Source: Vermamoeba vermiformis (taxonomy: Eukaryota). Taken from it: a stretch of DNA of 64,000 bases. The notes beneath the pieces were generated by a model that made no database searches, had not been told where the DNA came from, and worked only from the letters and a program-made list of their open reading frames with translations. The DNA is taken from NCBI GenBank assembly GCA_045837725.1, contig JBEWZL010000251.1:1-64000 (forward strand). The letters are read 5' to 3'. This document shows, piece after piece, positions 1 through 58,159 of the stretch. Numbering within the stretch: position 1 is the first letter of the stretch; each line of letters opens with the position of its first letter. The position numbers and the translations under genes are program-made.

Positions 1-199
1 AACTCTACCAATATCAACGAGTTAGTAATTGCTTATTTATAATATTAATACGTAAATAAACTTACCTATTTACCACTACGTTGATATTCAGTTCGCGATT
101 CCGCTCAAGTTGCGGATTGCATTTGTTCGCCACTTTAGCTATTTTAGCCGATCTGCTGTAAGATTACATTAGTTGCTATATGGTATAATAGTCGGATAT

Positions 200-2520
200 T
201 ACTTACGGGTCTAACACTTGTTACAATTTTCATGAAATTGCTCTGCCAGATCGCGTGTTCGGATCCCGTAAAATAGCTAACCTGGTCTTACCTGTAAATA
301 AAAACGTATAAGTAAGTGATAATATGTTAAAATAAAGCGTTATACTTACTTTTGGCGCAATCGATGCGCGTCATTGAACTTCTGCGAGATCGAGAGGTTG
401 AGTTCGCGATCTCTGGCCCCAGCTCCGTGGCATCTCCTAGGCGTAAAATTAGCATCAATTATTTAAAATATTAATATATAAGGGGGATCACTTACCTTAA
501 AGACAATCGATGCCCCGTATTGAAAGTTTAGCTGATCGAGACGCGTTGGATCTTGATCTCGTAATTTCTCTTCCATAACCGCCTTCGTTATATCTACTTA
601 TATAAGGCGTTAGTATTGACCAATTTATTACCTTAAGCGTACTTACGGGTCTTCTACTGTCAATGTAATGGATCTGTTGACGCGGGAAGATCGCGTTCGA
701 GATCCGTGACGGTGATTTTGATAAACCTAAATAAGATGTATTAGAATATTAAATAATAATAAAATAAAAGATCTAAGCAACTTACCCTTGACTCGCTATC
801 GGTCATTGAGCGATCCGACTTCGCGCTCGATCTACGACGAGCGTCTTTGCACTGACGCTCAAACAACCTATTAAATAAGGATTAACATATCACTTTAATA
901 ATAAATTAAACCAAAATTTGAATTTTACACGAGCACGAAGCTCGATCCGTGAATTTAAATTGTTAATACTTTCTCAATAATTTTAAATATGAAATCGACG
1001 CATTGATTGCGTCTTATTAATATATGATATATTAAATATAATACTTGCTTGTTATTTGAACGCGTTCCACGCATCCGATCGCGCCATCAAGTCCAATCCA
1101 ACGAGCGAGTAGTTCGAAGACTGTCCAACACATTGTACGACCGAAACAATAATGAATCTCAGCAAACGACCATTGGTGGTCGAGATCTTGCAATTCAAAA
1201 AGTTACAAATAAACGAAATTCGGCTATTGTCTACTGTAGCATTAGAAAACAATAGGATAAATTAAATTATGCTTACCTTTTTCACGCGTTTTACTTTACT
1301 TTTAGAGCTATCGGTGCTCTATGTTAGCACTTTGACCGATCGAGATTCGTTGGATCTCGATCCATTTTACTTCGTCAAAGGGTCGCGTTGAACCCTCTCG
1401 ATCTGTATTTACATTAAGTACATTACAGTAAATACGACGCCAACTTACCTTGGCATTAGAGCCATCAATTTAACGGAAATTACGCGCGCCAGATCGCGTT
1501 GCCAAATCCGTTGAATTTCAACCGCCATCTTAGTACTGATAAATAAACGATGTTAGTGCTTAATAATGAATATATATATGACATTTTACTTACTTTCGAC
1601 GCGATCGATGCGCGTCATTGAACTTGTGAGAGATCGGTACGTCGTGACACGATCTCCGGCCCCAGCTCCGTGTTATTTCCTACACATAAAAATAGTATAT
1701 GTGAGTTAAGGTATTAATAAATAAGGGGTATTGCTTACATTTAGGGCATTCGCTGCTCTCTATAGAAATTTTTAAAGATCGAGATGCCTCGGATCTCGAT
1801 CTCGTAAATATTACTGAGGGCTTTCATAGCAAGCTCTAATAATAAAAACAGTTAGTATTACTCAGTATCTAACACAGTGAATACTTACGGGGCTATATTT
1901 CATTTGTTGTATCTAAATTTTAACGCGGGAAGATCGCGTTCCAGATCCGTCATCGTGAATATCTAAAACCTAAATAAAACGCATTAGCATATTGAATTAT
2001 AATAAAATAACAGTTTATAACTACTTACGCTTTATTCACTTCCGGTCATCGAGCGATCCGACTTCGCGCTCGATCCGGCACTCGCGTCTTTGCTCTACGT
2101 GCAAATAACCTATTAAATAATAATTAATACATTGTAGTAGTAATAAAACACTCGATAATTTAAACTTTACACGAGCACGAAGCTCGATCTAACTTCTCAA
2201 ATTTTAAAAAAATTATCTTGATTTTTAAAGTAATAATCGACCCATCGGTACGATTATTTTACTATTATTGAATATATTTAAAGACTTACCAATTTATTGC
2301 CAGGGCCTGGGCGGATTCGATCTCGCCATCAAGTTACCGACCCCGTCGGCGAGCAGTAGTGATCGTCCCCGCAGCGGGACACGAACGGAAAGCACCAGAA
2401 GACAATAATCCGACCATTGGTGGTCGGGATCTCGCGCATCGAAAGTCAGTAGAACTTTCGATCGCGTTGTTGATTTATGAGTCTATTCTATAATAAAAAA
2501 TAAACGTTAATATCATTCAA
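200..2520. repeat. Diverged tandem duplication with period ~1242 bp (7 exon/intron modules per unit)
   Basis: Matching blocks at a near-constant offset: ATCGATGCGCGTCATTGAACTT (~360/~1604), GGCCCCAGCTCCGTG (~415/~1658), ACGCGGGAAGATCGCGTTC (~680/~1924), GAGCGATCCGACTTCGCGCTCGATC (~808/~2051), ACACGAGCACGAAGCTCGATC (~927/~2169), CGACCATTGGTGGTCG (~1167/~2411). Splice signals sit at the same relative positions. Confidence 0.9.
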
Positions 2521-2563
2521 TTAGTATCATTAAATAATATACTAGTCAAGATTCGGACAAAAC

Positions 2564-5184
2564 TGTTACCGCCACTTACGACTTTATGACACATCGCACT
2601 AAATGGCGAAATCACTTCCGCTCTTTATGACACATGTTACCGCCGAAATTCAAATTTCAGTTTGGTGCGATGTGAGCCACTACAATGATAAATCAAATTA
2701 TGAGTATATTAAAACAATTACTTTTCAAGCAATGGACGATTGGCAGTATTCTGTGTACTGCAAGATCCTTGCCGGGGATCAATCTCCCTTCAGCGAAGCT
2801 GATGTTCCTCCATTGACCAGACACCAACGAAGTGCTCACAGACGACTTGCAAAGGCCAATTATTGCCTTATTGAAGGGAAGCTTTATCAGCGAGTTAAGT
2901 TTACGGAGATCGCGCAGCTTCCGCTCAGACCAACAGACCAGATGAGTGCAGAACCCAAGGTTGGTATTGACTTTGTTTTGCAAAAAGTCAAAACCCCTGT
3001 TTGGGTCCCTGTAGTTCGGTAAGCTGAAAAAGGGCGCAGATCGGAAAATCGCTGATTATTTATGAAACAGAGCATCAGAAAGACATTCGTGGCTTCAGAA
3101 AGCTCACGATGAAAACGCACACCAAGGAAGAGATGCAACGTTGAAATTCTTGCAGAAAACCGTTCATTGGCATGGAATGAAATCGGATGTGAGCAATCAC
3201 ATCCGGCTCTGTGACCTCTGCCAGCGAACAAGGACCGACTATACAGTAGCTCCATTGGAACACATTATTCCTGAGTAAGTAGAATAAACGGCAAAATATT
3301 TAATTTTAATTAATTTTTTTGGATTAGAAAGCCATTTGTTCGCTGGCAAATCGACTTGACTACTGTTGCAGGTCACACAGGTGTTCTCTTAATTGTTATT
3401 GATTGCTTCACAAAGCACGTCTGGTTCAAATGGCTGCCCTCAAAAGAAGCGATCGGCGTAACCAGCTTCTTGCTCTCAATTTTTAAAAAAGAAGGCCAAC
3501 GCCCAAAGATAATCCAATCTGATAATGGCGGTGAATTTATCTCGGATGTAATGAACCAGATCGCAGCAGAATTTAATATCGAGATAATCCATGGTAGACC
3601 GTATCACCCTCAATCACAAGGTTAGTATTAACTATTAACATACAATTTATTAATATTACACTGAAGGAAATGTTGAGCGTGTAAACAAGACAATCAAGGC
3701 GATGCTCTACAAGCTGATCCGTTCCGCAAAACAACAAAATCGTCCCTACTCTATTATGCAATTGACCGAACAAGTCGTTGATATTTACAACAACTCTTCA
3801 CACTCGTCTACAGGCTTTACCCCATTGGAATTGCAACGTCCCATACTAACCAGCCCAGTGCAAGCTAGCACACCACGAGAGATCTTAGCAGAGCAGAGAC
3901 TTCAACTTGCAGGGCTATTTGCACGTGCTCATGAACAACTCCAACGTGCAGCCAAAAAAGCAGATCGTGTTCATAATAAGAAGTATGCCACAAAGCTTCG
4001 TATTTTCAAGGTTGGGGATCGTGTTTTGTACAAAATTCCAAAACAACTGAGGAAGAAAGGCCAACCTGGTTACGATTGCGAAGCAGAGGTGACTGCAGTG
4101 CATCGCAACTCACGCTACTCTTTGAAGTTTATCACAAACAGTCCTCCAAACGCAAACCGAACATTTCATGCGAACGAATTTAAATTATACTACGGTAATT
4201 GAATTTTATTTATGTGTCATATGCTTACTAATATTACACTAGAGCCAGAAAAGCCCTCCGACACTGATCCTGAAGTTCCCACGCAAGGTAAAAAATTATT
4301 TCAAATTTTAATTAATAATCTGCCCACACAGTGGCACGCCAAGGTGGAGATCTGGAAAAAGCTGATTCTGCTGAACCAAAATCCCTGCAAGATGAAGATT
4401 CAGACCGTAAGTCATTAATTATTACGGCCAACATTTTGGGCTAAATTTTGTCCCAGTGTTCGAGGTTAATTTTGATATGGTGGCTGGCCCGAACAATAAT
4501 GACCTCGAGCATGATCACGAGCACGAGCACGAGCACGAGAAAGAAGTCAGCAATGATTTTGATCAATACTCAATTGACGTGTCAGATGAAGATGTCCCGT
4601 CGTACCTTGATGAGCAACTGGAAAATATAATTGACCTTTCTGAAGAGTCGTTGGACTGTGGAAATAATACCAATGTAATAACTGAGCGTACCCCCGAGAC
4701 AGATTCCGTTTCAGAAACGGGTAAATAATTTTCTGTGATCACAGAAATATTTATTAATATTATTTTAGATTATCAGGCTTACCAACCACGTCCACGACAA
4801 CAAATTCTTCGTGAACCTGGTATATCCGAATGCCGGTTTTTCCGGGAGCTTGGATCACCACCAAAAAAATAATCCGCTTCATCTTGTCAGATGTTAATTA
4901 ACAAAAACCGACCAAACACAAACTCACGTTCTGCAATAAACTAAAGTTATCCATATAATTTTGTTCTACTGTGTTTATCACCCGTAAGACGAGCTATGCT
5001 GGATTGGCACGAGATCGCGCTTTCAAAAAATCCGATCTCACCAACACAACTTCAGAAAAAAAAAATTCTTGTTGCATATTAATAGGTATGTTTGATTGTT
5101 CACTCCTTAATGAAGAGTTCAAACTGACTAAAAATTTTTAGCCGTTTGGTGCTACGTGTCGTAAAGTCGTAAGTGGCGGTAACA
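2564..5184 (+). mobile_element. Ginger-superfamily (Ginger2/Tdd-like) DNA transposon, apparently intact, 2621 bp
   Basis: 48-bp TIRs at 2564-2611 and 5137-5184 start TGT and end ACA; the outer 23 bp are identical (TGTTACCGCCACTTACGACTTTA), with 6 mismatches overall. 4-bp TSD AAAC at 2560-2563 and 5185-5188. Encodes a retroviral-type integrase and no RT, gag or LTR. Confidence 0.92.
2732..4872 (+). CDS. Integrase-like transposase (HHCC zinc finger + rve DDE core + acidic tail), 8 exons
   Basis: Hand-spliced frame is open throughout: AHDENAHQG..CDLC (HHCC), WQIDL, IQSDNGGEF, RPYHPQSQGNVER (D,D,E), FKVGDRVLYK C-terminal domain, then an acidic HEHEHE-containing tail ending ..GSPPKK*. Seven GT-AG introns at ~3020, 3275, 3621, 4195, 4288, 4407 and 4721. 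Confidence 0.9.
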
Positions 5185-5431
5185 AAACACGAGCACTAAG
5201 CTCGATCCGAATCTTGCAAGATTTTATTAAAAAAATTAAAAATTCAATTTCACATATAATATTAATTAAAATGGTACCACTAATATATTTAAAAACTTAC
5301 CTTTAATAATCTCGGTCTGTGCACCGAGATCCGCGCAAGTCTTGATCTCGCGCATTGCCTCGCGCTGTAACGACGCTGAATGTCGTTTGGAGCGTGTGTA
5401 TTAATTATAAATAAGCTATCTAAATCAACAA

Positions 5432-5891
5432 ATCGACCCTTGTGGCCGATCTGTTGCGAATCCGAGATTGTCATTATTCGAAATAACTCGCGCTGAACGG
5501 CCGTGTTGACCGTGGTGCGGCACTGTCTGCTGTAATTAATCATTAAATAATAAATACATCGACCCTTGTGGTCGATCTGTTGAATTGTTTATGCGAAATA
5601 GCCCGTGAGCCATTTTCGCATCAGTTCTGATCCAAAATAACTCGCGCTGGAACGGCTCTGGTGCCGCGGCGCGTTACTATAGGCTGTAAATAAACTAATT
5701 GTACGACAATAACTAAATAAATCGACCCTTATGGTCGATCTGTCAAGGTTTAATAAAAATAGCGTTCCAGATGACGCGTGCGAATTCAGCGTATTGAAAT
5801 AACTCGCGCTGAAACGACGTTGGAGTCGTGGCGCGTAACTGTCTGCTGTTGATCATCACTAATAATCAATAAATCGACCCTTGTGGTCGAT
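5432..5891. repeat. Four-copy ~150-bp degenerate tandem repeat, each unit headed by the hairpin ATCGACC-CTTGT-GGTCGAT
   Basis: Hairpins at 5432, 5558, 5721 and 5873 (spacing 126/163/152). A second conserved block AAATAACTCGCGCTG occurs at ~5481, ~5635 and ~5797. A 12-bp stem follows at 5913-5944. Confidence 0.85.
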
Positions 5892-6532
5892 CTCTCGCTG
5901 AACTATTTTTAGTGACAAGTTCGTGTCCGCTAACGGACTTGTCAGTGAGTAGGAATCGCTCCAACTTAATGTAATAATGCTTATTAATATTATTAACATT
6001 GTTTCATGAATTAATTTAAGAGAATTTCGGTGATCTCGCGGATTTAAATCCGTACGAACTTCAAGATCGGACTTAGAACCGCGAGGAAAAATAAACTATC
6101 GATAAATTACTGGTACTTACGGGTTATTTAGCCATTATTAGCCATTAATTTCTCCAAGGCTGACACAATCCGAGATGTCAGATCTGCGCGACGTTCTGTG
6201 ACCACCAACGTTTCCGAAAAAAAAACCAACCACTCCACGCATTGTTAATAGGCACCTACTAACGAAATTTATCAAAATTAAATCAATCAAAATTAATCAG
6301 TCAAAATTCGCGATCTTGGGCATGGTCGTGCCCACGCGGGATTATTGCGATAACTACCTTACCTTATCAAATTATATCGCGACCCTATATTCAATAGATA
6401 GATCTCTGTTTGATCTATCTGTTCCTGTCGTAAATTGTTCAAAAATCAATGTTCATGTTCTTTTTTGGCTATTTTGCTTCGATTTTTTGCCACGATTTTT
6501 TGGGCATGGTTTTCGCATCAATCCTGAGCGTT

Positions 6533-8595
6533 TCATGCCCATCGTATAACCCTAACCCTAACCCTGATCACGGCTCGAATTCGGTCGTTCTCGGACTGCA
6601 CCTTTTTGGATCCTTTTCGTGGCTTTATTCCAGAAAAAGACTTGTAAACTTTTTGCTGCCTGTTTGGAAGTGTCAGCGTGGTCATCAGATCGTTCTTTTC
6701 CTACTTACTTTTCCTTGATCTCCTTCTTGACAGAGTCATTGAGATCGGAGCAATCGATCATCAAGTCCAGCGGCAATGCCACGGCAGAATACCCGGAGTC
6801 AGCGTATGGAGTTTGATTCGAGTGCCGCCAAACATTGCTGCCAGCAAAATACATCTTCACCGCTGCCAGACTGTTTCTGTTGGAGTTGAACTTTATCATC
6901 GAACTCTTCAAGCAACCGATGCCCAAGTTTGGGAAGGACTGCACGGAAGCTCCCAGCGGAACGGAGGGATCATCCCCTTGTTCAAAGTTACGATCGTTTG
7001 GGATGAAAAGCTTCGAAAAAGATGATATTGAAGCATCGTTCATCGAGGCAACAAAGTTGGGGTTCCAGATGACCGAATGAGTCTGCTTCGCACTGACGCT
7101 CCTGCGCAACTTAGGTGTGAGCAGCAGCCTTCACGAGCTTTACCATCGTACCTGAGAGTAATTGCTATATCCTGGTAGAATTTGGTGCCTTCGAAATATT
7201 CGTTCTCCTTGTCGCATATCTCGTCGACTTCGAACACACTCGACACGTTGTTCATGAACCAATTGAACTCGGAGGCATCTTTCATCACCTCTTTACCACC
7301 GAAAAATTGCACCACAAAGACGACAGGAACCCTGAACAGAGGTTGAGAAAACGGAGGTAGATAGGCTTTTTTTTTTGTACCTAGATCCACGAAAGTGGAA
7401 TCGTGACTTAAGCTTTTGAATCTCAGTCAGGCAGTCGGCAGAAACCGTCTCCATCCTCCTGACATCTTGATTTTCGTTTAGGTGCTCCTCCAAGTCATCC
7501 CAAATGCCAATGTCTTTGGCAGCATCGGAGTTTTTGATCCCAGTCAAGATGACATCCTTGTAAAACGCTCGGAACATAGAAGGCAACAACGAATCATGCG
7601 ACTTCCAGCCCAGGAAGCAAGCATACACGTCATTCTTGCCATCCACGGCCCTGATCAAAAGTGGTCAGAACTGTAGGGACTAGCAGCCACTAGCGAGAAC
7701 ATACCCAATTTTTAGGTTGGCAGTTGTCGACAATGAGGACCCTGCCCAATCACCCTTTATCTTGTCGGCAGAAGAACCATACTGAGGATGGATGTACAGA
7801 CGAGGTAGCCTACGGAGCACTCCCAGGGTGTCGGTGACGATCGAGGTCGCATCCAAATCCATTCGAGAATGCAAATCAACTTTTGATTTGAGATCGGGAT
7901 AGTGAGCAGCTGCACCATAGTAGGTTGTGCTATTGAAAAACTCCATAGGGTTATTCGGGAGGTCGGAAGAATCAGACACTTCCTTGTAATCCTCAATCAG
8001 GTGTGCCGAGTAGACGGTCGGCCTGCAGGAACGAGTTTGCAGCATTGAAGCAAGCTCGTCTGACGTTGCTTTCGGCAAGGAACAACCCGCCAGAGATGGG
8101 ATAACGGTGTTGAGGCTAGAAAGTTGTCAATCAGAGTGCTTGCAGCATGAGCAATCTGTTTGTTGATTACCGTTCCACGTTGGATAGAAAATTAACTTGC
8201 TCCTCTTCTTCCATGTTCAAAAACCATTGCAGATTGGAAATGACTTGGTGTTGCCTAACAATGCTCACCATCTTGTCGAATGAAACGGCCTCAGGGGATG
8301 ACAGTTCCTTCATTGCAAAAAAATTAGGATCCAGGAGCTGCGTCTTACTGATCTCTGTTACCTCTGACCCTTCCTCTTCAGCAATCGAGTCGTTGAACTG
8401 GAACAGGCAATCGTCGGAGGGACTCGACTCTGCCTCGTCGACCAAAAGCTGCTCGTCGTTCGACCAGTCAATGCTGCGCTGCCGCTCCGAACTGGACGAC
8501 AGCTCATCATGGGGATTGGAATTGGGAATGTTGTCGCTGGACATCTCGGGGAGTCTGCTCATTCTCCTGGTGAAGAAAGGCGTCAGAAATAGCAT
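6533..8595 (-). pseudogene. Uncharacterised multi-exon protein, probably 3'-truncated at the telomeric repeat
   Basis: Six exons splice into one frame: acidic N-terminus, RMDLDATSIV, TANLKIGAVDG, VQFFGGK, FYQDIAITL, VKMYFAG, QTPYADSGY. The last exon reads ..NDRIRAVI, then RVRVRV encoded by the telomeric repeat, and stops at 6533. Start is at 8595 or 8562. Confidence 0.6.
6547..6565. repeat. Interstitial telomere-type repeat (TAACCC)3T
   Basis: TAACCCTAACCCTAACCCT, C-rich strand on +, directly abutting the last recognisable codons of the 6533-8595 gene. Confidence 0.75.
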
Positions 8596-8656
8596 TCTCC
8601 CATTTTTGTTTACAAGAACTCTTTATAAAAAATATTGTATAAAATCAAGGATACAA

Positions 8657-10642
8657 TCATTCAGACAGATAAGTGGGGATTCTGCTGGCATTGACCGTTT
8701 CAAACAGTTCAGGCTGCAACATGTACGTCTTTCCTTTGTACGACACCACCCAATCCTTGGCAGATTCGATATGCTTTTTCCAAAGCTCATCAAAGCCTTT
8801 GCCGATTTTCTTGGCAATCGTCGAGAACGACAGGTTGCAGAAAAGCAAAGCCGGGATCCTTCGTGCAGCTGCCTCGAACTTGGTGCAATTGTGCTTGAAT
8901 CTGGCAGGGCAATGATTATCAGTCTGGTTTGCTGTTAAACCTAGCAATGCTTACCTTCGAAAAGAGTTGCAGGATCCAGTCTTGTCCTTTGTGTCGAAGA
9001 TCCGAGCCTGAACAAATGTCGATCCCTTGAGCTGCCAAAATGCCTTGTTCTTGATCACTGCTTGGTGAAGCTTTGCATTGACCTCTTCTTTTTTCTTTTG
9101 CTCAGTCATTGAAGAGCTCCAATTGGCCTCGCATTCTGCCCGAATTTGGGACTGCCAATGAGTGAGAAAAGAACTTAGCGCAAACAATTTCATTTTGGTG
9201 GCTATCTAGAAAAGTGCAACATAATTAGTCAGGTTGCAAGCACTGAAAACTACCTGATCCACTTACTTTCACGCTCCTGTCATCCCGGTGCAATTTTGTG
9301 AGGTCTGCAGCAATGCTTGTGAGATAGCTATTGTAGTCCGCTTCAGCAGTCTTGCATTTGAACCAGGCGTTCAGGAAGGAGCGATCCACCAAATCAACAT
9401 GATCTGAAGAAAGAGCAGCATCCACCTCAAAGGTTTGCGACGACTTCATCCCGTTTACGAATTTTGTGTAGGCGGCATAATCGATAGAGCAGTCGGAGAG
9501 CTTGTCGAGAAGCGCACCAAAGTGATCAACTGTGTCAAAAGATTAAAAGGGGACTATGACGTATCTATTGACTCTTAGCTTACCCTCAGGAGTTGCTGGT
9601 TTTGCTTGCAACTCCTTTGCTGGAAAGATTTTCTGGGGGGCAATATCTCTTTGAGCAGATGGGGGCTTGGCTTTCTGGCTAGTCTCACACTGAACGGCTG
9701 GCGCGCAATCTTCTTCGTTTCCAGTGTGGTCCTCGACGGTTACCACCTGCGGAGGTGCCTTCTTGAACAATTTGTCCATCATTCCCTGACTCAGCTCAAT
9801 TGGCAACTCTCCTTCAACCATTGCTGTCGAAATGGGTTGAGCCAGTGCAATGCAGCAAAGCACAAACAAACTCACCGATGAAGAGGTTCTCTTCGTGCTT
9901 GAGTGTATCTGCCAAGAAGCCACCATTGACAAACCTAGCGGTCAGTGCAAAGCCGTTCTTGACAAGGTAGTTGACGCACTTGACTGCCTTGCGAGCTGCT
10001 CCTATAAAACATTTGAGTAAAATTGCATGTACCTTCGGCTGCTACTCACTGGACTCTGTAGTATCATCAATACGCTCCTTTCGAGCCTTCTTCTTCTTTC
10101 CGGCAGGGGAACGGTCATTGCCTCGACTGTCTCCTGCTTGGTGGCCCATGTCATCCGCTTGGGGTTCTTCACCTTGCTCCACCAATGCCGTGCCATCGTT
10201 TGGACCGTCCCAGACATCCACCTGTCCTTCTAGGTTGTCTGATGCTCTTGAAGGCACATCATCACCATGGTGCTGAGACTCCTCCTCTGCCGATAGAGAC
10301 AGAGCCTCGGCGACCTGCAGTGTGACAATGCATTAAACAAGCTGCTTTTATTGAAGGCAATGCGATTATTCGATTTACCTTAAACCTCTTGGCCGGTCTC
10401 TCCGAGGACTCTTCATCATCCTCGAGCACCCTCTTCCGCTTCTTGCCTGCTTGGGCCCAATAGGACTGAGCGTCTGCAAGCTGCTTTTCGGAGTACTCCA
10501 ACTCTCCGTAACTAAAATAAATCGGTTCAGATGATGGTTACAACCCCAGTTAAAACACTTACTATTTTTTAACAAGGGCTCTCAAGTCGCTCTCAGACCC
10601 CCATGTCTCTCCAGCTACTAGGGCAAGGTAAAAAACGCACAT
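8657..10642 (-). CDS. Uncharacterised multi-exon protein with basic NLS-like motifs (KKRKR, KKKKARK) and a helical C-terminal region
   Basis: ORF-track fragments at 10262-10501, 10042-10257, 9543-9932, 9225-9449, 8951-9193 and 8657-8947 join in frame through canonical GT-AG introns. The start codon is uncertain. Confidence 0.65.
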
Positions 10643-11062
10643 CCAAAGGCGGGAACTTTTTGTCGGTTGGATTTTTGGATGCGGATTTTTACTCCAAAGA
10701 CCGACTCTTCTCCCTATAATTAAATCTATTCTAGGCCCTGAAGCCTTTGACAGCCTCGGCTCAATTAATGAGATTTGAGTGAGAAAAATAACAATTTTGG
10801 ATTTTGAATCCTGAGGTCTTGCGTGCTCGGATAAAATTTTATCGACCAAGCCTACATAATTTTCCTTTCGTGTAATTTTATCAGTCATTACTTACGTAAA
10901 TCTTTCAAAAGTTGGTGCGTGGTTGTGCGTACTTGATTTTCGGCAAAAATAACGGTACAAAAAAAGCGGTAGGAAGTATTTATCAGGAGCTACGTGGAAC
11001 AACAAAGTTTTGCGAAACTTTTGTAAAATGTTTTGTCATCAGAATTTGCAAAACTTTAGTAT

Positions 11063-13566
11063 TTATTCGAACTTTTGTTTGGCAATAGAATAAACCAGCT
11101 TTTTTACGTATGATTTCGAGCATTTGTTTTGAAAGCACTCCTGCACTAAATGCGACAGCAAATCTTTTTGAGTTGCAGTGCGTAGATTGTGTTCTTTGCA
11201 ATATAATTGTAACAATTGCACGTCTTTGGGATCAATCTCCTTGGATTTGTTGTTCTGTGAAGAGAAGCCTTTGTCGCGCAAGTTTTCGTAGGAAAATACC
11301 TCCGTTGCAGTATCAATAATGAATACACGCATGGGTAGTTGCTCAAACTGCTCCGACAAGAAAAGCAGTTCAGAGTGCACTCGTTCAGTAGGAGACAAGT
11401 CCTTGCGAGCAACGCTGCACTACATTAGAAGAGATAATAGAGGAGTGCTGTCACCGTACCTTGCATTGTACAACAATTGACAGTGCATGATGATAATTAG
11501 ATTCAACTCAAATGAGATGTTTCCGCTTAGTTGCTGGGCCATTGTCGAAAGATAATGGTGCCAGGCTTCAAGCGGAGAAGTTCCTTGAGGAATCTCTTTC
11601 TTTAAAAGCGATGTAAGTATAAGTGAGCACTGCGTATTTGACCATTCTTACGTCAACTAATGATATGTTATGCAAGCTTGCTAGTGTCACTTCTTTGCAC
11701 AGGTTACCAACTGCATGCTTGACCGTTTCATCAACTATTCCGTCTCGAAAGTCTTGTTTTGTCTTGCGCCTATTATGTAATTAGCTTGGTCGTTGAAACA
11801 CCATTGATAAGCTTACTTTTGATCGCCGATAAGTAGAATCACTTCATTTGTGTTATATCTTGACAGTGGTGTTGGTTCCGCAAAGGTGGTTGACCAATTG
11901 CGCAAAGCATCAGCGAGCTGTGATGCATTCTCATAGGCCTTTGCCTTAATCTTCGCAAGAACTGCTGAAAGCTCTTTAACACTATACTTATAATCTACAT
12001 ATTGTTAGGATTTCGGAAATAATGGTGTGTTGCACGCACCTGGATGCGAACGAGGAAGCAACTTTACAACTCGCATCTTAGCATGATAGATATCCGTCAG
12101 TAATACTGGCTTAAATGTTGCTTGGGGGAAGCACTCTGCAAATGCTTCTAAAACAGCGGCACTATCTGATAATTGTCAGAAAAGCAGCCATAAATTCCTG
12201 AAACGTACCAACTATGACATTATCTGAGTATATAAACTTTGTTGTTGGCTCCTTGTGATGCTTCCATAATGTCGCATAAACTGCCGCGGCAATAGTGCGG
12301 TCATCTGATGGAACGATTCGGATCTGCAGAATTTTTCCGGATTCATTGCTGACAGAAAATAAGCTAGCCTTAATTTTTATCTGATTTATAATTAGTAATT
12401 GTGACGTCAAATTGCAGTCAACTTACCCGTGTTGATTCATTCTTTGAATGCGCAGACAAATTTTTCACAATTTTGTACGTGTGATCTCCTCGTAATACGA
12501 CTCCACTGGTTGTGTTCAGATGTTCTTGTTGTCTTGAGTACTCCTGAGACTTCACTGAATGCCAATAAGACATGTATATGTTCTTAATAGTTTGCGTTGA
12601 GATTTCGGTGCTCCGTTCTTGCAAACTGCTGTTCGAAATCCATTGCAATACCAATATCTTCTTTGCACGTGCGAAATTGAAGCCCACTAGTGGCATTGTG
12701 TTGTAGATATAGCAAGCTAATCGAGTAGTGTACAGTAGACGAGTGCCGACAAACAAAGACATGCTCGGACAGTACGTAGGAGGAAGGCATTGCACAATTT
12801 CTGTACTTAGTGCACTGAAGCTTGAGTTGTGAGTGTTGCAACGGTACCGTTGAATCACCAAGGAGTAGATCCCTGAGAGGTCAAACATGACGCGACGTAC
12901 AAATCCATCTTTCACTACGTTGCACTAAACAAATCATGCTATAGAAAGCAATATTAAAGTATTACCATATGTACGTTTAACTTTGCCGGGCATTGTCTCA
13001 ATTTTGTTATTACGCGTCCTTTGCATTTCCAGTTGAACTTGTATTCCTTCAAGCCATTTAAGGAAATTTCTGGTTGAACATTAATTAACAATTGTGCGGA
13101 GAGTGAAACTGTACCTTCTTCTGAACTCCAGGATTCGTCGTCCGAACTTTCCTCATCGGTAGAATCACTTTCAGAATCGTCCAATTGAGGGAGAGCTGCC
13201 GCAATGTCGTTTAAATTGAAAGACCCTAGTATTGTTAGTCTCTTATTGTCTACCATAATGACACATACCTTGCAGATCAATCTGATCGGTGGCAGTTGGC
13301 AGCTCGCACTTTACTACTGTGGTTGCACGTCGCTCTTTTTTCTTCCAGCCACTCTCTCGTACAGTTACTGTCTACTGTTAGACTTGATTTGACAGAGAAA
13401 ACGTACTTCCGAGATGTACTTCTTTGATGTGCCGCTCAACATTTCCTTTATACTCGGAAGAATAGCGGCACACGATGCAAGAGTGCTTGGTGAATCCATT
13501 TGTTTTAGATGACTGATACAATGATTTGACCCTGACGGCCAGCTCTTCTTCTGTTGTGTGCTCCAT
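11063..13566 (-). CDS. DDE transposase (C2H2 finger + Cys/His domain + RNase H-like core with DxxH), DUF6729-like family by recollection
   Basis: Spliced product contains CIVC..HIKEVH, RYRCNTH, LRGDHTYKIV (D), SVSNESGKI, FIYSDN (D), LLTDIYHAKMR (DxxH) and GTSPLEAWH (E). The gene lies inside the TIRs, and no stop was found in the exons I translated. Confidence 0.8.
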
Positions 13567-15263: not shown

Positions 15264-15587
15264 ATTATTGTGCACGTAAATATTTGTTTTGTAATTGCTC
15301 GCAAATAAACGATAAACCTTATCGCAAATAAACGATAAACCTTTAATTCATTGACAAAACATTTTACAAAAGTTTAGCGGAACTTCGTTGTTCCACGTAG
15401 CTCCTGATAAATACTTCCTACCAAAAAAGCGCGCTACTGGCCATTGGTGGGTAAGCCAAAAAAGGAAACCCTTGTCTTGGGCAAACATATTGAATATAAA
15501 CACGACCATTAGAAGGTGGTTTATTTATGTAACGTATTTTAATGCATTAAACAGAATGCACTCAAAGAAAGCATCCAGATCCTTCGT

Positions 15588-19381: not shown

Positions 19382-19735
19382 AGGGCATCCTCCAGAGATG
19401 ATACCTTATGTATTCACTGGCCCTTGTGGGGGAGGGTGTCCACCATGGAGGACGCCCTATGTACGTGTTTGTCTCAGCAGGGGAGGGCGTCCTCCATGGA
19501 GGACGCCCTATGTACTTATCCGTGCCGGTCTGAGTGGGGGAGGGCGTCCTCCATGGAGGACGCCCTATGTACGTGCCTGTCCGAGTCAGGGAGGGCGTCC
19601 TCCATGGAGGACGCCCTATGTACGTGCTTGTCTCAGCGGGGGAGGGCGTCCTCCATGGAGGACGCCCTATCTACTTACCCGTGCCGGTCTGAGTCGGGGA
19701 GGGCGTCCTCCATGGAGGACGCCCTATGTACGTGC
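19382..19735. repeat. Tandem array of 26-bp perfect palindromes AGGGCGTCCTCCATGGAGGACGCCCT, unit 51 or 57 bp
   Basis: Perfect copies at 19484, 19541, 19592, 19643 and 19700, a 2-mismatch copy at 19433 and a degenerate copy at 19382. Periods are 51,51,57,51,51,57. Confidence 0.95.
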
Positions 19736-19875: not shown

Positions 19876-21029
19876 TCACGGAACAGATCCCTAACCACGG
19901 GGACGCCTCCTTGTTGACCAAGTTTGACCAGACCCCCGTCCGCGCCGCGGGGACGCCCCTGTAAAAAAAGTTAAAAAGTTAAACCCTAAAGTGGAAGTTA
20001 GCCCTACATAGTATACTAGTGGCTCCTGGACATTACTTCAATTTCAGCAAGATTTTAGCCAATTTTGCAGTTGTCCCACAGGAAAAGGCTTATAACCCTT
20101 AAAAGGACTAAGCCTAAGTATATATATAATCTTGTAGCAGAAATTGACCTCAACTATGATAGTGCTCCTTGGCATCACAATTTAGATTTACACTATGATA
20201 TGTTTAATTGTATTGCCAATATCACCAACATCACCACTATGCATTGCCCAATAACACCAGATATCAATTCACATTATTTAGGTCAAAACTGAAGAACAGA
20301 TGGCATGTTGACCCACCTCTTATAAATCACCCAGCTCCCACAATACCCATTGAATTTATGCTACCATACAAATATGCAATGGAGGAAGTGTGATAAAGAA
20401 GATTTAGCCTCACTTGACCTAATAAAAAAAAATCTATGAATCCTCAGGGTATGGCATAATTAGAAGAGATTGGATTATTTTCTGCCATTGACATGTTATT
20501 TGAACACTTTCAGAGAACAGATTGTCCAGATTGAAATATTACTTTTGCTATTACAGAAAATTTCATTAATATTTGTTCAATATTTCCAGGAGTTAAATTA
20601 AAATTTCCAAATCCTTACTAGGTTGACTAATCTTGCCCTACAAGTCCATGGCTGGATTTTGTAACACAGGTTTTTGGATACTTCTTCAGCCAAATCTTGA
20701 CAGTGTGCACACATATTGTGAAGTCACTTTTTGATTGCTTGAGTGCTACACTAATTATACTGTAATGCACCATAAGATACTGACAGCAGTTATTGGCAGG
20801 CTTACCCACCAATAAAATTGAAATGGAGCACAAGATGTCAATATAAAACACCGAAAACAGAAAGTACTAATTTTGGAATACCCACAATGCTCATGACAAG
20901 CAGCACTAGCTCCTAAGTTCACCAAGAAAGGATGGGTTAGGGTAAAACAAAGGTGATTTTGGCTTCAGTTATCCCAGCAAAAGTGCATTGCTTGGACTTT
21001 GGGGGACTAGTCAAGCAACAACAATAAAT

Positions 21030-53619: not shown

Positions 53620-56600
53620 TCATTGGTTCATTGCGGCAAGGCGTTGTACTACAGATGCCATTGATGGTCGAGTTGATGGTTCGTGTTGCCAACAGTCTTC
53701 GATCAGCTTTACGACGGCCGCACTAACCGACCCATCATCGTCAAACGGAAGTCGTTTGCCGGACTTGACGTGTGCTTCGATATCTGAGTCCCACTTGAAG
53801 TCATTGAACGGTGTTTGTTCGCACATCATCGACCACACGAGCACCGCAAAGCTGTAGACATCAGCACTCTTGTCGATGCGAGGACTTTTGCCCAGTGCCT
53901 CTGGAGCCATAAATGCAATTGTTCCAATGTTCTTTGTGATGGTCGTAGGGTCATCTGAGATAAACCGAGCTGTGCCAAAGTCGGTCAACTTAACGTGGAC
54001 AGGTGCTCTTGGCTCCAATGAGAACACGAGGATATTCTGCGGCTTGATGTCTCGGTGGATTATGCCGTTGGTGTGAAGGAACTGAAGGGCTTTAGCTGTC
54101 TCTAACAGCATCGTGATCTTCATCGCCGTTGATAGCCTTTGTTTTTGCATGACGCTGGCGATACTGCCGAGAGGAGCAAACTCGATCACAATGGCGAGAT
54201 TGTTTTTGACATTTGACGCGCCGATGAACTGCACGATATTCGGGTGTCTCAAGTCCTTCATTAAGGTTACTTCCCGTTCGAATTCGATCTTCATCTCGTC
54301 AGTCAGGTACTGCGAAAGTAGCTTCTTGACCGCTACTTCCTGGCCTCGATAAGTGCCAAGCGTTACGGAGCCAAATCTTTGAACAAATGTGTCAATCTCG
54401 AGGTCTTGAAATGAACGATTTTAACTTACCCTCCACCTCCTAGGTACTCTCCGTTCGATTCAATTTCGTCCAAATCGATCCACGTTGACATGCCGCTAGA
54501 CATTTTGAATTCTATTACTGAATAAATCTTGTCCCGTTCATTCACCACAATCAAGCAGATCTTGCACTTGGCAGTCAGGCGCATTGTAGTAGACACTGTC
54601 ACGTAAGTGACTCCACGTGGATCAAGTTCAACGCTCGCGGGCTCCACTTTGATCTCGTACTTCGGTGACTGAGGTGCGTAGATATCAATGTGAGTGCCAT
54701 CAATGAGGCGCTCTCTCATTCCTCCAACCTTGGATGATGACTTAGCGTCGCGAAGGCTGATCTCTATGATGCTTTGATTCCACACTCCAACTCTGACTGA
54801 CTCTTTGCCAAGTGAATTAAGAGCCGAGTAATCGATGATAAATGGCATTTTGTCGATCGGTTTGTACGTGAATCCGTCGCCTGGGCTCCACTCCCATGTT
54901 GTTGACTGGACGATGGGCACTGCGCCCTCGGGGTTTAACACCTCAGACTTGGCTTGAGTGAGCAAGTTTTCCAGTTCTAACTCGTGCTTTTGACTGGCAA
55001 TCATTCTGCGTCGCACCAAAAAGGCAACAATGATCAGTCCCATTAGACCAATTGCACCTCCAATCGACGTGAGAACAACTCCAAGGACTGTCCAACTTGA
55101 TACTGTCGTGAATCTGAATGGATGAGATTCCAACTTGCTACTGCCGCAAACAGCAACAACGTGGAATGACGCAGCCGTGATTAGAGGTGTGATAGTCACT
55201 CGAATACTGCTCGAATCAGTGCCCGATACATTCATTGGCCGTTCGTTCTTAAACCACTCGTGCTCTGTGCATTCTTCGTCTTTCAGCCTGACCGTTAAGG
55301 TTACTTCACTCGAACTAAGCCAGACGGATTGGGATGACGTGGGTCGTGGGCCATCAAACACCAAATCATGGTCGACAACACGGAGTTGATTGCAACTACG
55401 AGCTGAACCAGACGGGTTGTACGCAACTACGCAGAGCTCGTGAGCAGAGTTGCATGTGAACGATTCTCCAGCTAAAACCACCGATGGATCAGATGTGACG
55501 TGACTCTCGTTCTCCAGTGTCCAATTGAAACGCATTTGCTTTCCTGTAGCGCTAATCTCGACAGGTGCAAGTTCATGGCACATGATGATAGATCTTTCAA
55601 GGGGCGCAGTAATAACTGGAGGCCCGTAAACTTCCAGCTTGGCTTGCTGACCAATGCGTTGGCTGCACTGATCAAACAGCGAAATAGAGTAGGTGCCCAT
55701 CGACTCTTGCGTCACGTGATTGAGAGCCAAACTGAATGTTGTTTCGTTGGCCAAGCGTACATTGTCACGTTGCCAATAAGACGATACAACCTTTCCTTGG
55801 ACTGAAACATCAAAATTCACACTCTCGCCAATGAATAGCTGTGCGTCGTTCAATCCGTTCGTAATTGTTGTCAATTCCATCGCTTTCAAATTATCGGCGA
55901 ATGTTGAAGCCACGATGAAGTTCTCCGTCACGTAGAATTGATTATCGCCGCCACTGTTGTATGCAAAGCTGAAGCTCTCGCCGGTCGTCGTTTCATGAAC
56001 GCTAATCTGACGTTCGACATTTCTTCTGCTGTAAAAGACGACTTTGCTGCCGATCACTCTGACTGAGCGCGGCTCCGAATTAGGCACCAGCAGTGGCCTG
56101 TTAGTACTACTCTCGATATCAACAATATCGACTCGATTTTCTCGTGCAACAAAGATCAAGTTATCTCGTGCAGCCAATTCCACCATCGGGGGTGAATAAA
56201 ACGACAAATTCGGTGGCAGTATTGTTGACTTCCATGTCGCGGTTTTCACGTTATAAATGTCGACTCTGTTGCTGTCGTCGTTCTTTCCTGAACGCGCGTA
56301 TCCGCCGGCATATATGACGTAATCGCCGTGCACGAGCGCCTTCATTCTTATTCGTCCATTGAATGAAGTCTCCTCGACGCGGTACTGATTTGTTTCGACA
56401 TTGTAAACGTGCAGTTTTCGAAACTCGCTGCCCTCTCCAATGCCAGTAATGAGTATCGTAGGGTTTTGCACAGTAACGAATGCGTGAGTTAGAAGTGAGT
56501 CGAACTCTGGGCCAATACGCCATTTACGCGTGTTCATGTTGTAGATTTTCATAGTTGCCAAGTCTAACAGCACAATGTTGTCGTTGACAATGTGGACTGG

Positions 56601-58159
56601 CACGTATTGAATCGCTGGTAAAACTGTCCATTCGTTCGTGGCAACATCAAGAACAAATATATTGGTCGCATTACGCAGCACCACATAATCATCGCTCGAA
56701 GTCGCAACAGTTAGCCGGTCAGTAGTAGGAAGTGCATTGGTTGTCCAAGTCTCGGTGTCTACATTAAACACCAAGTATTGCTCTCTCGAACTGGCAGTGA
56801 ACACCAAAAGCTTTCGGCCTGCCTGAATTTGACCATCGGGGCTTACTGAAAATTGTTCCGGGTAATTGTATACGTTCTGTTGGTTCTTTCGTAGATTGTA
56901 ATAATAGATCACTTGACTTCGTCCAAGAAATCTAAAGACGTATCCAAATGCTGCGTGGATGTAACCAATTCCAATAACGTAATCTCTATCCACAACTGTG
57001 CTCAGTAATGCTCGCGTGTCGAATTGCGCGACGCTCTCGGGAAACTGGTGACCACTTGCTCCGCTGCAGTAAATTATTCCATTCTCTTCCACTGATTGCC
57101 CGCCGGATAAAAACAGAGTAGACGAGCGGAAGCGGACTAGCCGGGCATAAGGACGATAAACAGTGATGAATCCAGGGCCAATGAGATACAGCTCCTCGCC
57201 AATGAGATTGTATGCGGCGATATTTCGCTCTGAAAATGTCGATTCGTATAGCGGTCTGTTTGGATTGTCGATGCCAATATTGAGGAGAGTAGTGTAGCTT
57301 AACAGAGTTAAAGAATCTCCGAAATAGACAATGCCCAATACTGCAGAACTCCACGTGACTGTTCTAGGGGCACTCCAAGTCATATTACCAACGTTGAGAA
57401 TGTTGATAACGACGTTGTAATTCGATCTTCCTGCGAAAAACACTCGATCACCACCGAAGGTAGCAGCAGAAGGTGTTAATGGCAGCTCTAGAGTGTCCAT
57501 AGTGTTTGCGATAGGGTCTACGATGAATACAGTCGTACTCTTATCTGAGTATAAAAACACGCGAGATCCAGCAACAAGAGCATTAATACGCTCCGAGACT
57601 TGTCCAACGTCGAAGTCCATCGTTTGCATTGTCTGGGTATCTGCATCGTATACATCGATCTTGTCATAATAACTTGAGGCTCTACTGTTCAATTGGCCGC
57701 CAGCAAATAGAACTTTCGATCCGACTGAGGAAACTGCTATTCGGCCACGTCCTTCAGGCAATTTTAGAGTAGAAACCACTCCATTTACAGGGTCGAGAAT
57801 ATCTACATTAGTGGATCCAGTTCCGTTGGTTGCAAAAAAGCCACCAGCAAAAAAGATCTTTCCATCTCTTTTTCCCAACCCCATGTAATCTCGTGGAGTC
57901 GATAGTGAAAGTGGTTGATAACATCCTAAAAAATACCCGATTATTTATTGTCGTTATAATTGAATTTTTACAATAATAATCTAATTACCCGCAGCCACGA
58001 TCGGGATTAGGACCAACAAAATTGCCAAAACGATGTTCCAACCGATGTTCCGTCTTTAAAATGAAATATTAATTACATTAATTTACTCAGTAGCAATTCA
58101 GTGCAATTTAGCTGTGGTTGTCATATTGTTAAATTATGAGACTTGCAGTACCTGATCAT
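53620..58159 (-). CDS. Receptor-like TKL kinase (signal peptide, Kelch-like propellers, Ig-like domains, TM, kinase)
   Basis: LGGGGFGSV, VAVKK, HRDIKPQN, DFG, GTIAFMAPE, DVYSF; TM VLGVVLTSIGGAIGLMGLIIVAFLV; signal-like IVLAILLVLIPIVAA. Confidence 0.9.

Follow-up and report, generated by a model that had tools for sequence, protein, structure and literature searches.

A tandem array of short exons and introns in Vermamoeba vermiformis with kept splice signals and GATC/CGCG cores, possibly a multi-copy spliced non-coding RNA gene

Within a 64,000-nt stretch of Vermamoeba vermiformis DNA (assembly GCA_045837725.1, contig JBEWZL010000251.1, positions 1 to 64,000, forward strand; hereafter the window), the minus strand of positions 1-2487 carries a chain of 14 short exons (80-198 nt). 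Judged from the sequence of a duplicated seven-exon block, the view is supported that constraint acts on splice signals and on short GATC/CGCG cores, and not on the reading frame, and it is likewise supported that the array copy in the window codes for no protein. We give about an even chance to the explanation that module amplification has produced a multi-copy gene for a spliced non-coding RNA.

Between the exons of 1-2487 lie 12 short introns of 43-61 nt, all with full splice signals, and two long ones, of 180 nt in copy B of the duplicated block and about 181-188 nt in copy A, and a third long intron on the same strand, from 5300 to 2488, has a Ginger-like transposon inside it (Table 1). 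A full intron signal was defined as GTAAG, a branch-like YTWAY site and YAG, all within 75 nt. On the minus strand, 1-2560 contains 12 of them, whereas 300 composition-keeping block shuffles had 0.67 on average and never more than 4; the densest gene region in the window has less than half this density of signals. The first-pass annotation had described at least 16 canonical minus-strand introns; these 12 signals, the long introns at 2289-2110 (GTAAGT..TAG) and 5300-2488, and further donors at 6120 and 6362 agree with that description, but the long intron of copy A does not, because it has no GTAAG donor. The 3' end of exon A1 is uncertain for the same reason, the candidate donors being GCAAGT at 1048 and GTATTA at 1044. 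At the left edge, a further exon begins at position 4 and is cut by the end of the window; the array thus goes on to the left.

Table 1. Features of the array and of the adjoining sequence, in order along the minus strand (window coordinates).
Feature	Position	Strand	Length	Characteristics
Upstream GATC/CGCG-rich part	5301-6440	-		Donors at 6120 and 6362; further palindromes
Long intron	2488-5300	-		Donor GTAAGT at 5300, acceptor TAG 2490-2488; third copy of kept intron block at about 5187-5208, plus transposon
Ginger-like cut-and-paste transposon	2564-5184	+		Inserted; outside the array proper
Exon B1	2290-2487	-	198 nt	Longest exon type, several hairpins; acceptor TAG 2490-2488, donor GTAAGT at 2289; stems ATCGAAAGT/ACTTTCGAT and CCGACCA/TGGTCGG; core 2301-2353 multi-copy in the genome, matched by RNA reads from another copy
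Intron iB1	2110-2289	-	180 nt	Long, GTAAGT..TAG; kept block AGATCGAGCTTCGTGCTCGTGTAAA (24 nt), identical in copy A
Exon B2	2029-2109	-	81 nt	Hairpin ATCGAGCG-n11-CGCTCGAT
Intron iB2	1970-2028	-	59 nt	GTAAGT, CTAAT and TAG signals
Exon B3	1889-1969	-	81 nt	Core ACGGATCTGGAACGCGATCTTCCCGCG with 6-bp stem
Intron iB3	1836-1888	-	53 nt	TACTAAC branch site
Exon B4	1739-1835	-	97 nt	Hairpin AGATCGAGAT-n7-ATCTCGATCT
Intron iB4	1680-1738	-	59 nt	GTAAGC..TAG
Exon B5	1594-1679	-	86 nt	Hairpin GAGATCG-n13-CGATCTC; kept blocks CACGGAGCTGGGGCC and AAGTTCAATGACGCGCATCGAT
Intron iB5	1536-1593	-	58 nt	CACTAAC branch site
Exon B6	1449-1535	-	87 nt	ACGCGATCTGG core; without strong hairpin
Intron iB6	1403-1448	-	46 nt	
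Exon B7	1277-1402	-	126 nt	Hairpin GATCGAGAT-n7-ATCTCGATC
Intron iB7	1234-1276	-	43 nt	GTAAGC..CAG; link between copies B and A
Exon A1	1049-1233	-		Homologous to B1; 3' end uncertain
Intron iA1	868-1048	-	about 181 nt	Long; kept 22-24-nt block common to iB1
Exon A2	786-867	-	82 nt	Core as in B2 except one stem-breaking change
Intron iA2	727-785	-	59 nt	
Exon A3	647-726	-	80 nt	
Intron iA3	594-646	-	53 nt	TACTAAC branch site
Exon A4	496-593	-	98 nt	Hairpin homologous to that of B4, imperfect
Intron iA4	437-495	-	59 nt	
Exon A5	350-436	-	87 nt	Hairpin GAGATCG-n14-CGATCTC
Intron iA5	292-349	-	58 nt	
Exon A6	207-291	-	85 nt	
Intron iA6	156-206	-	51 nt	
Exon A7	66-155	-	90 nt	
Intron iA7	5-65	-	61 nt	

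GC content in the array has a period of 138 bp, with a power of 9.3 against a median of 0.52 (18 times the median), and peaks of 1.0-1.6 were obtained in four control regions. Twelve modules, lying head to tail at a constant period as satellite-like units do, are in register, have a common (G)GATC core and are divided into types that are 30-56% alike. A 145-position module profile recovered 12 of the 12, and no further copies in the rest of the 64-kb window. Over the first 3 kb, GATC occurs at 16, 15 and 10 per kb, and 5001-7000 has 11 and 14 per kb, against 0-9 per kb in the 57 bins from 7001 onward. CGCG follows the same pattern, and the GATC/CGCG richness noted at first is real.

The duplication covers 1,243 bp, and its copies A and B are about 61-66% alike in exons and introns alike (identity 0.665 in exons and 0.664 in intron interiors). 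The splice signals are kept far above this level: for the homologous introns 2-6, the copies agree at 29 of 30 donor positions and at all 15 acceptor positions, and the chance of 44 identical positions out of 45 is ~2e-7 (binomial at p = 0.66). Six of 126 20-nt windows are at least 95% identical between the copies, compared to 0.05 expected. The substitutions, 205 transitions and 277 transversions, are not RIP-like. Exon lengths in the two copies are 1-2 nt apart, and of the 17 gaps in the alignment of exons 2-6, 15 have lengths not divisible by three. The initial reading of the duplication, as one in which splice sites and hairpin cores are kept and reading frames are not, is borne out for splice signals, short cores and frames.

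Four hairpins quoted in the first-pass annotation were all found where it had placed them, at 1776-1802 (10-bp stem, loop of 7), 2048-2074 (8 bp, loop of 11), 386-413 and 1630-1656 (7 bp each). Its statement that nearly all exons carry a stem-loop was too strong, since a perfect stem of at least 7 bp is present in 7 of the 14 exons and one of at least 6 bp in 10. The mean best stem is 6.8 bp in exons, compared to 4.9 in shuffles, and 5.3 bp in introns, the same as in shuffles (5.3), so hairpin enrichment is limited to exons; the 10-bp stem of exon B4 was reached by 0 of 200 shuffles. CGATC is present in every exon (14/14) and ACGCG, which is 11-fold enriched, in 11 of 14, and ACGCGATC occurs 6 times, ~100-fold over the window background, with 5 occurrences on the spliced strand. 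Selection on structure, which had also been proposed, was not borne out. Predicted folds are equal on the two strands (mean z -1.11 on the minus and -1.10 on the plus strand), and loops, not only stems, belong to the kept cores, the 11-nt loop of exon 2 being identical in both copies. No compensatory pair change was found between copies A and B, and two copy A stems are broken by changes giving A-C mismatches on the spliced strand. Taken together, these observations indicate that what is kept is primary sequence that happens to be palindromic. Across module types, one pair among 9 covaried, in an alignment with one arm misplaced. Rfam matched nothing, either at the gathering threshold or with E relaxed to 5, in line with the earlier failure to recognise a named family. 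A snoRNA host gene was rejected on the grounds that Rfam gave no match and the short introns are only 43-61 nt. A cluster of miRNA or hairpin small-RNA precursors, whose stems should reach about 20 bp or more, is unlikely, since the best perfect stems here are of 5-10 bp, below what known Dicer-type precursors require.

The proposal that positions 1-6240 form one array of hairpin exons stood for the exon chain of 1-2487, but 2564-5184 is a transposon and 5301-6240 is a repeat of another type, without regular canonical introns, in which the module profile (145 nt) found nothing (best E 2.2). The transposon has 48-nt terminal inverted repeats (88%), TGTTA termini, an rve domain (E 5e-16) and, on the plus strand, an integrase gene with short introns. 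Ginger transposons are described as having a Gypsy-type integrase, terminal inverted repeats and TGTNR termini, with a target duplication of 4 bp, CCGG or CCGT, in Ginger1 and of 6 bp, RTATAY, in Ginger2 (PMC2836005). The integrase, inverted repeats and TGTNR-type termini are all found in the inserted element, and its 4-bp target duplication, AAAC, has the Ginger1 length and neither published Ginger1 sequence. By our own arithmetic, intron 2488-5300 without the insert and one copy of the target duplication would be 188 nt, near the other two long introns. Since a 2.6-kb transposon lies inside an intron, this copy of the array may be inactive. Two transposons with terminal inverted repeats lie within 15 kb; the surroundings are transposon-rich, which suits the mobile island suggested earlier. 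In the upstream part, ATCGACC-n5-GGTCGAT recurs in each of four units, about 150 bp long, at 5423-5898. We consider 5301-6440 to be probably the 5' part of the transcription unit of the array; the exon chain certainly extends beyond the left window edge, and probably upstream to about 6440. Directly upstream of the array, and on its strand, is an orphan gene (6705-10891), with an AATAAA about 60 nt past its stop.

Three RNA runs had essentially zero depth over 12 kb that include the orphan gene, and are uninformative either way for the array locus. Reads were placed on 2301-2353 only (8, 13 and 20 in the three runs), and originate from another family copy. The consensus of their loose ends, inspected by eye, joins the end of a B1-type exon, within one base, directly to the start of an A2/B2-type exon (18 of 20 letters match 849-868), and the homologous 180-nt intron is therefore absent from the RNA. 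This single junction is a thin indication that another family copy is transcribed and spliced at the position homologous to B1/B2, and an intron-less DNA copy would give the same reads. The array locus is a member of a family with other genomic copies. Contig depth at 2329 was 8,938 compared to 260-560 nearby, a hint of many copies, although depth is not a copy number, and DNA contigs contain variable arrangements of units. A search for relatives beyond this genome found none.

No open reading frame of at least 90 aa is present in the array on either strand, the spliced model (1,456 nt) has 17-27 stops in every frame, and copies A and B differ about equally at the three codon positions (52/51/53). 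The protein search covered the B1 frame, the other exons being too short singly; HMMER against 1.84 billion representatives returned 6 hits, of which the 3 inspected were translated tandem repeats, and a word search with the best B1 frame read through gave no candidate. The non-coding status claimed for this copy is accordingly upheld, although the exon chain is cut by the left window edge and an ORF may lie further downstream. An unlikely alternative, though the one that survives best, is that the array is a decayed member of a protein-coding family, whose functional copies would encode a small protein, hydrophobic in an N-terminal segment and carrying repeats rich in Arg/Ser/Asp; repeats of AGA/CGA and TCG/TCT codons are self-complementary, and would produce GATC palindromes as a by-product. 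Consistent with such a family, one B1 frame starts at an ATG and extends over 50 codons, interrupted by a lone TGA; all reads from the other copy carry T>G at 2329, which on our reading changes this TGA to a Cys codon. RS and SR dipeptides are also abundant in the best frame. When A1 is ended at 1056, the best frame of spliced copy A contains just 3 stops (P about 0.017), but this openness hangs on an arbitrary exon end, P being 0.22 with an end at 1049, 0.044 at 1045 and 0.33 without A1. Decay of a coding family is also at odds with the flat distribution over codon positions and the lack of protein relatives of the B1 frame in both searches, as well as with copy B, which has at least 12 stops in every frame, and with the kept block ACTTGATGGCG, which is in different frames in A1 and B1. 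Moreover, splice sites are expected to decay in pseudogenes, and here they are intact despite 34-39% divergence.

We hold it less likely still that the array is a DNA-level repeat, satellite-like or associated with transposons, in which the CGATC/ACGCG palindromes bind a protein such as a transposase or a transcription factor, and splicing of occasional transcripts is incidental, inherited from the amplified ancestral unit. ACGCG is the core of fungal MluI-box sites, and its enrichment here would suit such a role, as would palindromes that are symmetric and fold equally on both strands, the regular period of 138-145 bp, the variable unit arrangements of the multi-copy family in DNA contigs, and the two transposons nearby. 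However, a DNA-binding role does not explain why donors, acceptors and branch sites are kept far above intron interiors. The kept cores are, in addition, many different sequences and not one repeated site, ACGCGATC is oriented 5:1 along the spliced strand, and the module profile has no copies elsewhere in the 64 kb.

Least probable of all is that the array is a very long intron-rich leader of a gene left of the window, toward which the exon chain runs off the edge with the exon starting at position 4, or the trailing part of the orphan gene directly upstream on the same strand, since we know of no precedent for a leader with at least 15 introns and a duplicated 7-exon block, a 3' UTR with so many introns should trigger nonsense-mediated decay, and the AATAAA follows shortly on the stop of the orphan gene.

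For the array as a spliced non-coding RNA gene, the following history would apply. An ancestral module of about 140-145 bp would have been amplified head to tail, the modules would have diverged into at least four types, and the seven-exon block of 1,243 bp would then have been duplicated. After this duplication, most positions have drifted to about 61-66% identity, while donors, acceptors, branch sites and cores of 15-35 nt, rich in CGATC and ACGCG and often palindromic, were held. The mature RNA would consist of many short conserved modules strung together, with about half able to form 7-10-bp GAUC-containing hairpins, and the spliced RNA might be a multivalent platform, or else a decoy, for a factor recognising the motifs. 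We infer that the locus itself is transcribed, that RNA, and not DNA, is the functional form, and, as to the identity of the binder, that it would be a factor of this kind.

A more tentative proposal is that the array represents an undescribed kind of non-coding RNA gene, in which a 140-bp cassette of one motif, one exon and one intron was amplified, and splicing yields a bead-string of GAUC/ACGCG motifs and mini-hairpins. Under this proposal, the intron load itself is perhaps functional, through loading of exon-junction complexes or nuclear retention, and the motifs might attract a dedicated factor that binds RNA or hairpins, or supply a small-RNA pathway policing the neighbouring transposons. 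Should the array prove to be a working RNA gene, it would stand for a long non-coding RNA built by tandem amplification of exon-intron cassettes, a route unfamiliar to us, with selection visible on splice signals and 15-35-nt cores only, and it would offer a compact natural system, with 14 exons in 2.5 kb and paralogous copies to compare, for studying the role of repeated short exons and dense splicing in a non-coding transcript. Should it turn out to be a DNA-level repeat or a decayed gene family, it would be useful as a warning that the look of a 'structured RNA array' can arise from Arg/Ser-type codon repeats and from tandem amplification.

Among known systems, the Xist A-repeat, the NORAD repeat units and the Firre repeats belong to Pol II non-coding RNAs that contain many repeats of one short conserved motif or hairpin between poorly conserved linkers, and which are thought to act as multivalent protein platforms. 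The array likewise repeats a short conserved motif or hairpin between weakly conserved linkers, but those repeats lie inside one or a few large exons, whereas each repeat of the array is its own 80-98-nt exon with a 43-61-nt intron. The repeat types of the array are also strongly diverged, the locus is in a multi-copy family, and its binding partner is only putative. Like snoRNA host genes of the UHG/GAS5 type, the array is multi-exon, spliced and non-coding, with exons largely free to drift; however, snoRNA hosts conserve parts of their introns, the snoRNAs, and the array conserves exon cores. Twelve of the 14 introns in 1-2487 are too short for a snoRNA, and the kept 22-24-nt intron block is confined to the three long introns.

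With satellite DNA, which has units of about 140-150 bp, the array shares a head-to-tail order, a period of 138-145 bp, a higher-order duplication and arrangements that vary among copies. It differs in that its unit types are only 30-56% alike, yet have splice signals in every unit, in that it is short, and in that family transcripts are spliced. Introner elements resemble it in their many similar-sized introns with strong splice signals, and in a repeated context near DNA transposons, but introners are copies of a nearly identical intron scattered over unrelated coding genes. The introns of the array are alike only in their signals, and it copies exon and intron together, in tandem.

The window is eukaryotic, with short introns of the GTAAGT..CTAAY..YAG type, and encodes an ABCG-type transporter and a squalene/phytoene synthase as well as Kelch, BTB, SPRY and kinase proteins. 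At its left end, a minus-strand chain of 14 short exons (the array, 1-2487) is made up of two copies, B (exons B1-B7) and A (exons A1-A7), which form a tandem duplication of 1,243 bp. Throughout each copy, one exon together with its intron (a module) measures ∼140–150 bp, and the chain exits the window on the left, its final intron extending to position 5.

Features of the array and its surroundings, in window coordinates.
Feature	Position	Strand	Length	Remarks
Upstream region	5301-6440			GATC/CGCG-rich, related; four ∼150-bp units, few canonical introns
Long intron	donor GTAAGT at 5300 to acceptor TAG at 2490-2488	-		splice signals
Cut-and-paste transposon	2564-5184	+		inverted ends 48 nt (88%), TGTTA termini, 4-bp duplication AAAC
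Exon B1	2487-2290	-		between TAG acceptor and 180-nt intron
Long intron after B1	2289-2110	-	180 nt	
Exons B2-B7 (six)		-	81-126 nt each	introns between them 43-59 nt
Exon A1	1233 to ∼1049	-		3' end uncertain, no GTAAG donor
Long intron after A1	ends at 868	-		
Exons A2-A7		-	80-98 nt each	introns 51-61 nt

The intron signals, motifs and hairpins of the array exceed chance. On the minus strand of 1-2560, 12 complete intron signals were present, whereas 300 block shuffles preserving local composition averaged 0.67 and never exceeded 4; among the ordinary gene regions of the window, the highest density is 8 per 4 kb. In the array, GATC is three to four times commoner, and CGCG several times commoner, than elsewhere in the window. 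Every one of the 14 exons carries CGATC, 11 of them carry ACGCG, and ACGCGATC is present 6 times, ∼100-fold over background, with 5 of the 6 on the spliced strand. Perfect hairpins (stem at least 7, loop 3–14) numbered 12 in 1-2560, versus 2.2 ± 1.5 in shuffles, and 5 in 5183-6240, versus 0.9 in shuffles. This enrichment is confined to exons, whose mean best stem was 6.8 bp versus 4.9 in shuffles; for introns, both values were 5.3 bp. The first-pass annotation, which had placed hairpins in nearly all exons, overstated their reach, since a perfect stem of at least 7 bp is found in 7 of the 14 exons, five of these seven belonging to copy B.

A common (G)GATC core aligns all 12 modules, which fall into types (B2/A2; B3/A3 with B6/A6; B4/A4 with B7; B5/A5) whose pairwise identity is 30–56%. 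GC content shows a periodicity of 138 bp (power 9.3 versus a median of 0.52, with peaks of 1.0–1.6 in four control regions), and a module profile found 12 of 12 modules and no others in 64 kb (best other E 2.1). The shared core, the GC period and the profile recovery indicate that a single exon-intron cassette was amplified in tandem to form the array, after which a seven-exon block was duplicated.

Copies A and B, which are identical at 757 of 1,239 aligned positions (61%), are old duplicates. RIP was rejected as the source of their divergence, because transversions (277) outnumber transitions (205). Identity is no higher in exons (0.665) than in intron interiors (0.664), and conservation is very patchy, with 6 of 126 20-nt windows at least 95% identical, versus 0.05 expected, and 48 windows at most 50% identical. 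In introns 2–6, the donors are identical at 29 of 30 positions and the acceptors at 15 of 15, and the branch motifs are kept too; the other kept patches are exon cores of 15–35 nt and one 22–24-nt block in each of three long introns. By our own binomial arithmetic, the chance of this splice-site retention is ∼2e-7. Splice sites should have decayed in pseudogenes of this divergence, and we regard their persistence as evidence that purifying selection has acted on splicing in A and B alike.

The coding potential of the exons was evaluated in several ways. The spliced model of 1,456 nt contains 27, 24, and 17 stops per frame versus 26.5 ± 4.9 in shuffles, A/B differences are evenly spread over the codon positions (52/51/53), and 15 of the 17 alignment gaps in exons 2–6 shift the frame. 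Stops in all three frames were found in four of the seven exons of copy B (B2, B3, B4, and B7) and, among A1–A3 translated singly, in A1 only. These results stand against the possibility that the array is a coding family whose GATC palindromes come from Arg-Ser repeats, which we regard as unlikely and retain because such palindromes are a natural by-product of Arg-Ser repeats in AGA/CGA plus TCG/TCT codons. One result, a 144-codon open stretch in copy A (P ∼0.017), points toward coding; however, this signal depends on an A1 end placed by homology, where no donor exists, and it is not robust to the choice of that end, becoming 98 codons (P 0.22) with a GCAAGT donor and 138 codons (P 0.044) with a GTATTA donor, and giving P 0.33 when exon A1 is left out. 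Likewise, one frame of B1 starts with ATG and is open except for a single TGA, where all RNA reads from another copy carry T>G, but with this change the open stretch is only ∼38 codons and not significant. No candidate relative of this read-through frame was obtained in a protein word search, and of 6 matches in an exhaustive search, the 3 inspected were translated tandem repeats. The spliced, non-coding reading is the best supported, and we hold it with even confidence.

The first-pass annotation was largely right in proposing a spliced, non-coding array, and that part is retained; its further claim, of selection on RNA structure, was not supported. Compared with shuffles, exon folds show a modest gain in stability, equal on the two strands (mean z -1.11 and -1.10), no pair change between A and B is compensated, and the stem changes in A2 and A4, both of them CpG transitions, leave the spliced strand with A-C or C-A mismatches. 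Loops are sometimes kept like stems, as in exon 2, whose 11 loop positions all agree between A and B. Across module types, there is one covarying pair in the automatic alignment, and the stem tops of types I and III, compared by eye, are two compensated pairs apart. Because folds are equal on both strands, A/B compensation is absent and loops are kept, selection for RNA pairing is not demonstrated, and the conserved feature is the primary sequence, which is often palindromic. An Ire1-type loop consensus was dropped, since it fits one loop only (B4).

A search of sequencing runs found DNA runs that contain the stretch, together with three RNA-seq runs under the same species label. No RNA run was listed as containing the stretch, and the small shares (0.05–0.08) seen in one run from a different organism, guessed to be RNA, and in metagenomes from aquifer, soil and water were left out of the evidence. 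The three RNA runs gave practically no depth anywhere on 1-12000, and since this includes the neighboring orphan gene (6705-10891, minus strand), which has multiple exons, these runs are no test of the expression of this copy. A few RNA reads at 4506-4538 fall on a simple CACGAG repeat. In addition, 8, 13, and 20 reads per run, 95–99% alike, fit only 2301-2353, a core within exon B1. Past 2301, the read consensus continues for 19–20 letters as an A2/B2-type exon start (18 of 20 to 849-868), which, compared by eye, abuts the B1-type exon end within one base. This joint indicates that another family member is transcribed and that its RNA is without the homologous 180-nt intron. DNA contig depth reaches 8,938 at 2329 versus 260–560 nearby, a depth that does not equal copy number, and the DNA contigs contain many alternative joints among 5.3–5.9 kb units, which together point to a multi-copy family.

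The transposon carries a Gypsy-type rve integrase gene on the plus strand with several introns of ∼45–55 nt, and it is inserted in a long intron that, without the insert, would be ∼188 nt, like the other two. In each TIR, a GTAAGT faces outward at 16 nt from the end of the transposon, so antisense read-through of the element could splice from 2579 to exon B1. Between the upstream GATC-rich region and the orphan gene's 3' end is a (CCCTAA)2.5 tract (6541-6557, plus strand), for which a promoter telo-box, a healed chromosome end and a retroelement scar are possible explanations; a hammerhead or Terminon-like 3' end by this tract was rejected, as neither inspection by eye nor Rfam revealed a ribozyme motif.

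Other features of the window were also recorded. The orphan gene is large, its ORF pieces are acidic and disordered-looking, no Pfam match at E ≤ 0.1 reached the curated cut-off, and in the DNA run its contig depth is raised in parts. Inverted repeats of 71 nt (94%) at 10968-11038 and 15352-15422, 4.3 kb apart, enclose ORFs (12418-13310) that match nothing in Pfam, and the pair is probably a second TIR transposon. Tandem 51/57-bp units at 19382-19735, each with a 24-nt perfect palindrome, GGGCGTCCTCCATGGAGGACGCCC, form a second array that carries palindromes, one unrelated in sequence to that at 1-2487. The region 20001-21000 is a sharply CpG-depleted island, with one CG dinucleotide and no GATC, versus 32–47 CG in neighboring kilobases. 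At 53620-57944 (minus strand), a 1,172-aa Kelch-repeat ORF is immediately upstream of a protein-kinase ORF; because a search of 5.8 billion proteins gave only 4 relatives of the Kelch ORF at E ≤ 1e-10 (56–97% identity), this ORF represents a lineage-restricted, receptor-kinase-like family.

Comparison with known families gave no counterpart of the array. Across the 64 kb, nothing in Rfam reached its gathering score, three weak matches in 1-7000 (E 1.3–2.9) were taken as chance, and ARAGORN found no tRNA. For GATCGAATCC, part of the 2301-2353 core, a tRNA-like or SINE reading was rejected on this ARAGORN result and because no cloverleaf is visible. The 23-nt core at 2306-2328 had no matches in metagenome or viral contigs, and a degenerate 23-nt motif had a single match, attributed to chance because the contig, GC-rich and bacterial-looking, shows no further likeness. 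Among the titles and abstracts listed by a full-text literature search, none was a relevant description of such spliced non-coding short-exon arrays. The transposon, apart from its target sequence, fits the published description of Ginger (PMC2836005). The array itself fits no named family, and our best reading of it is a spliced long non-coding RNA in which modules are repeated.
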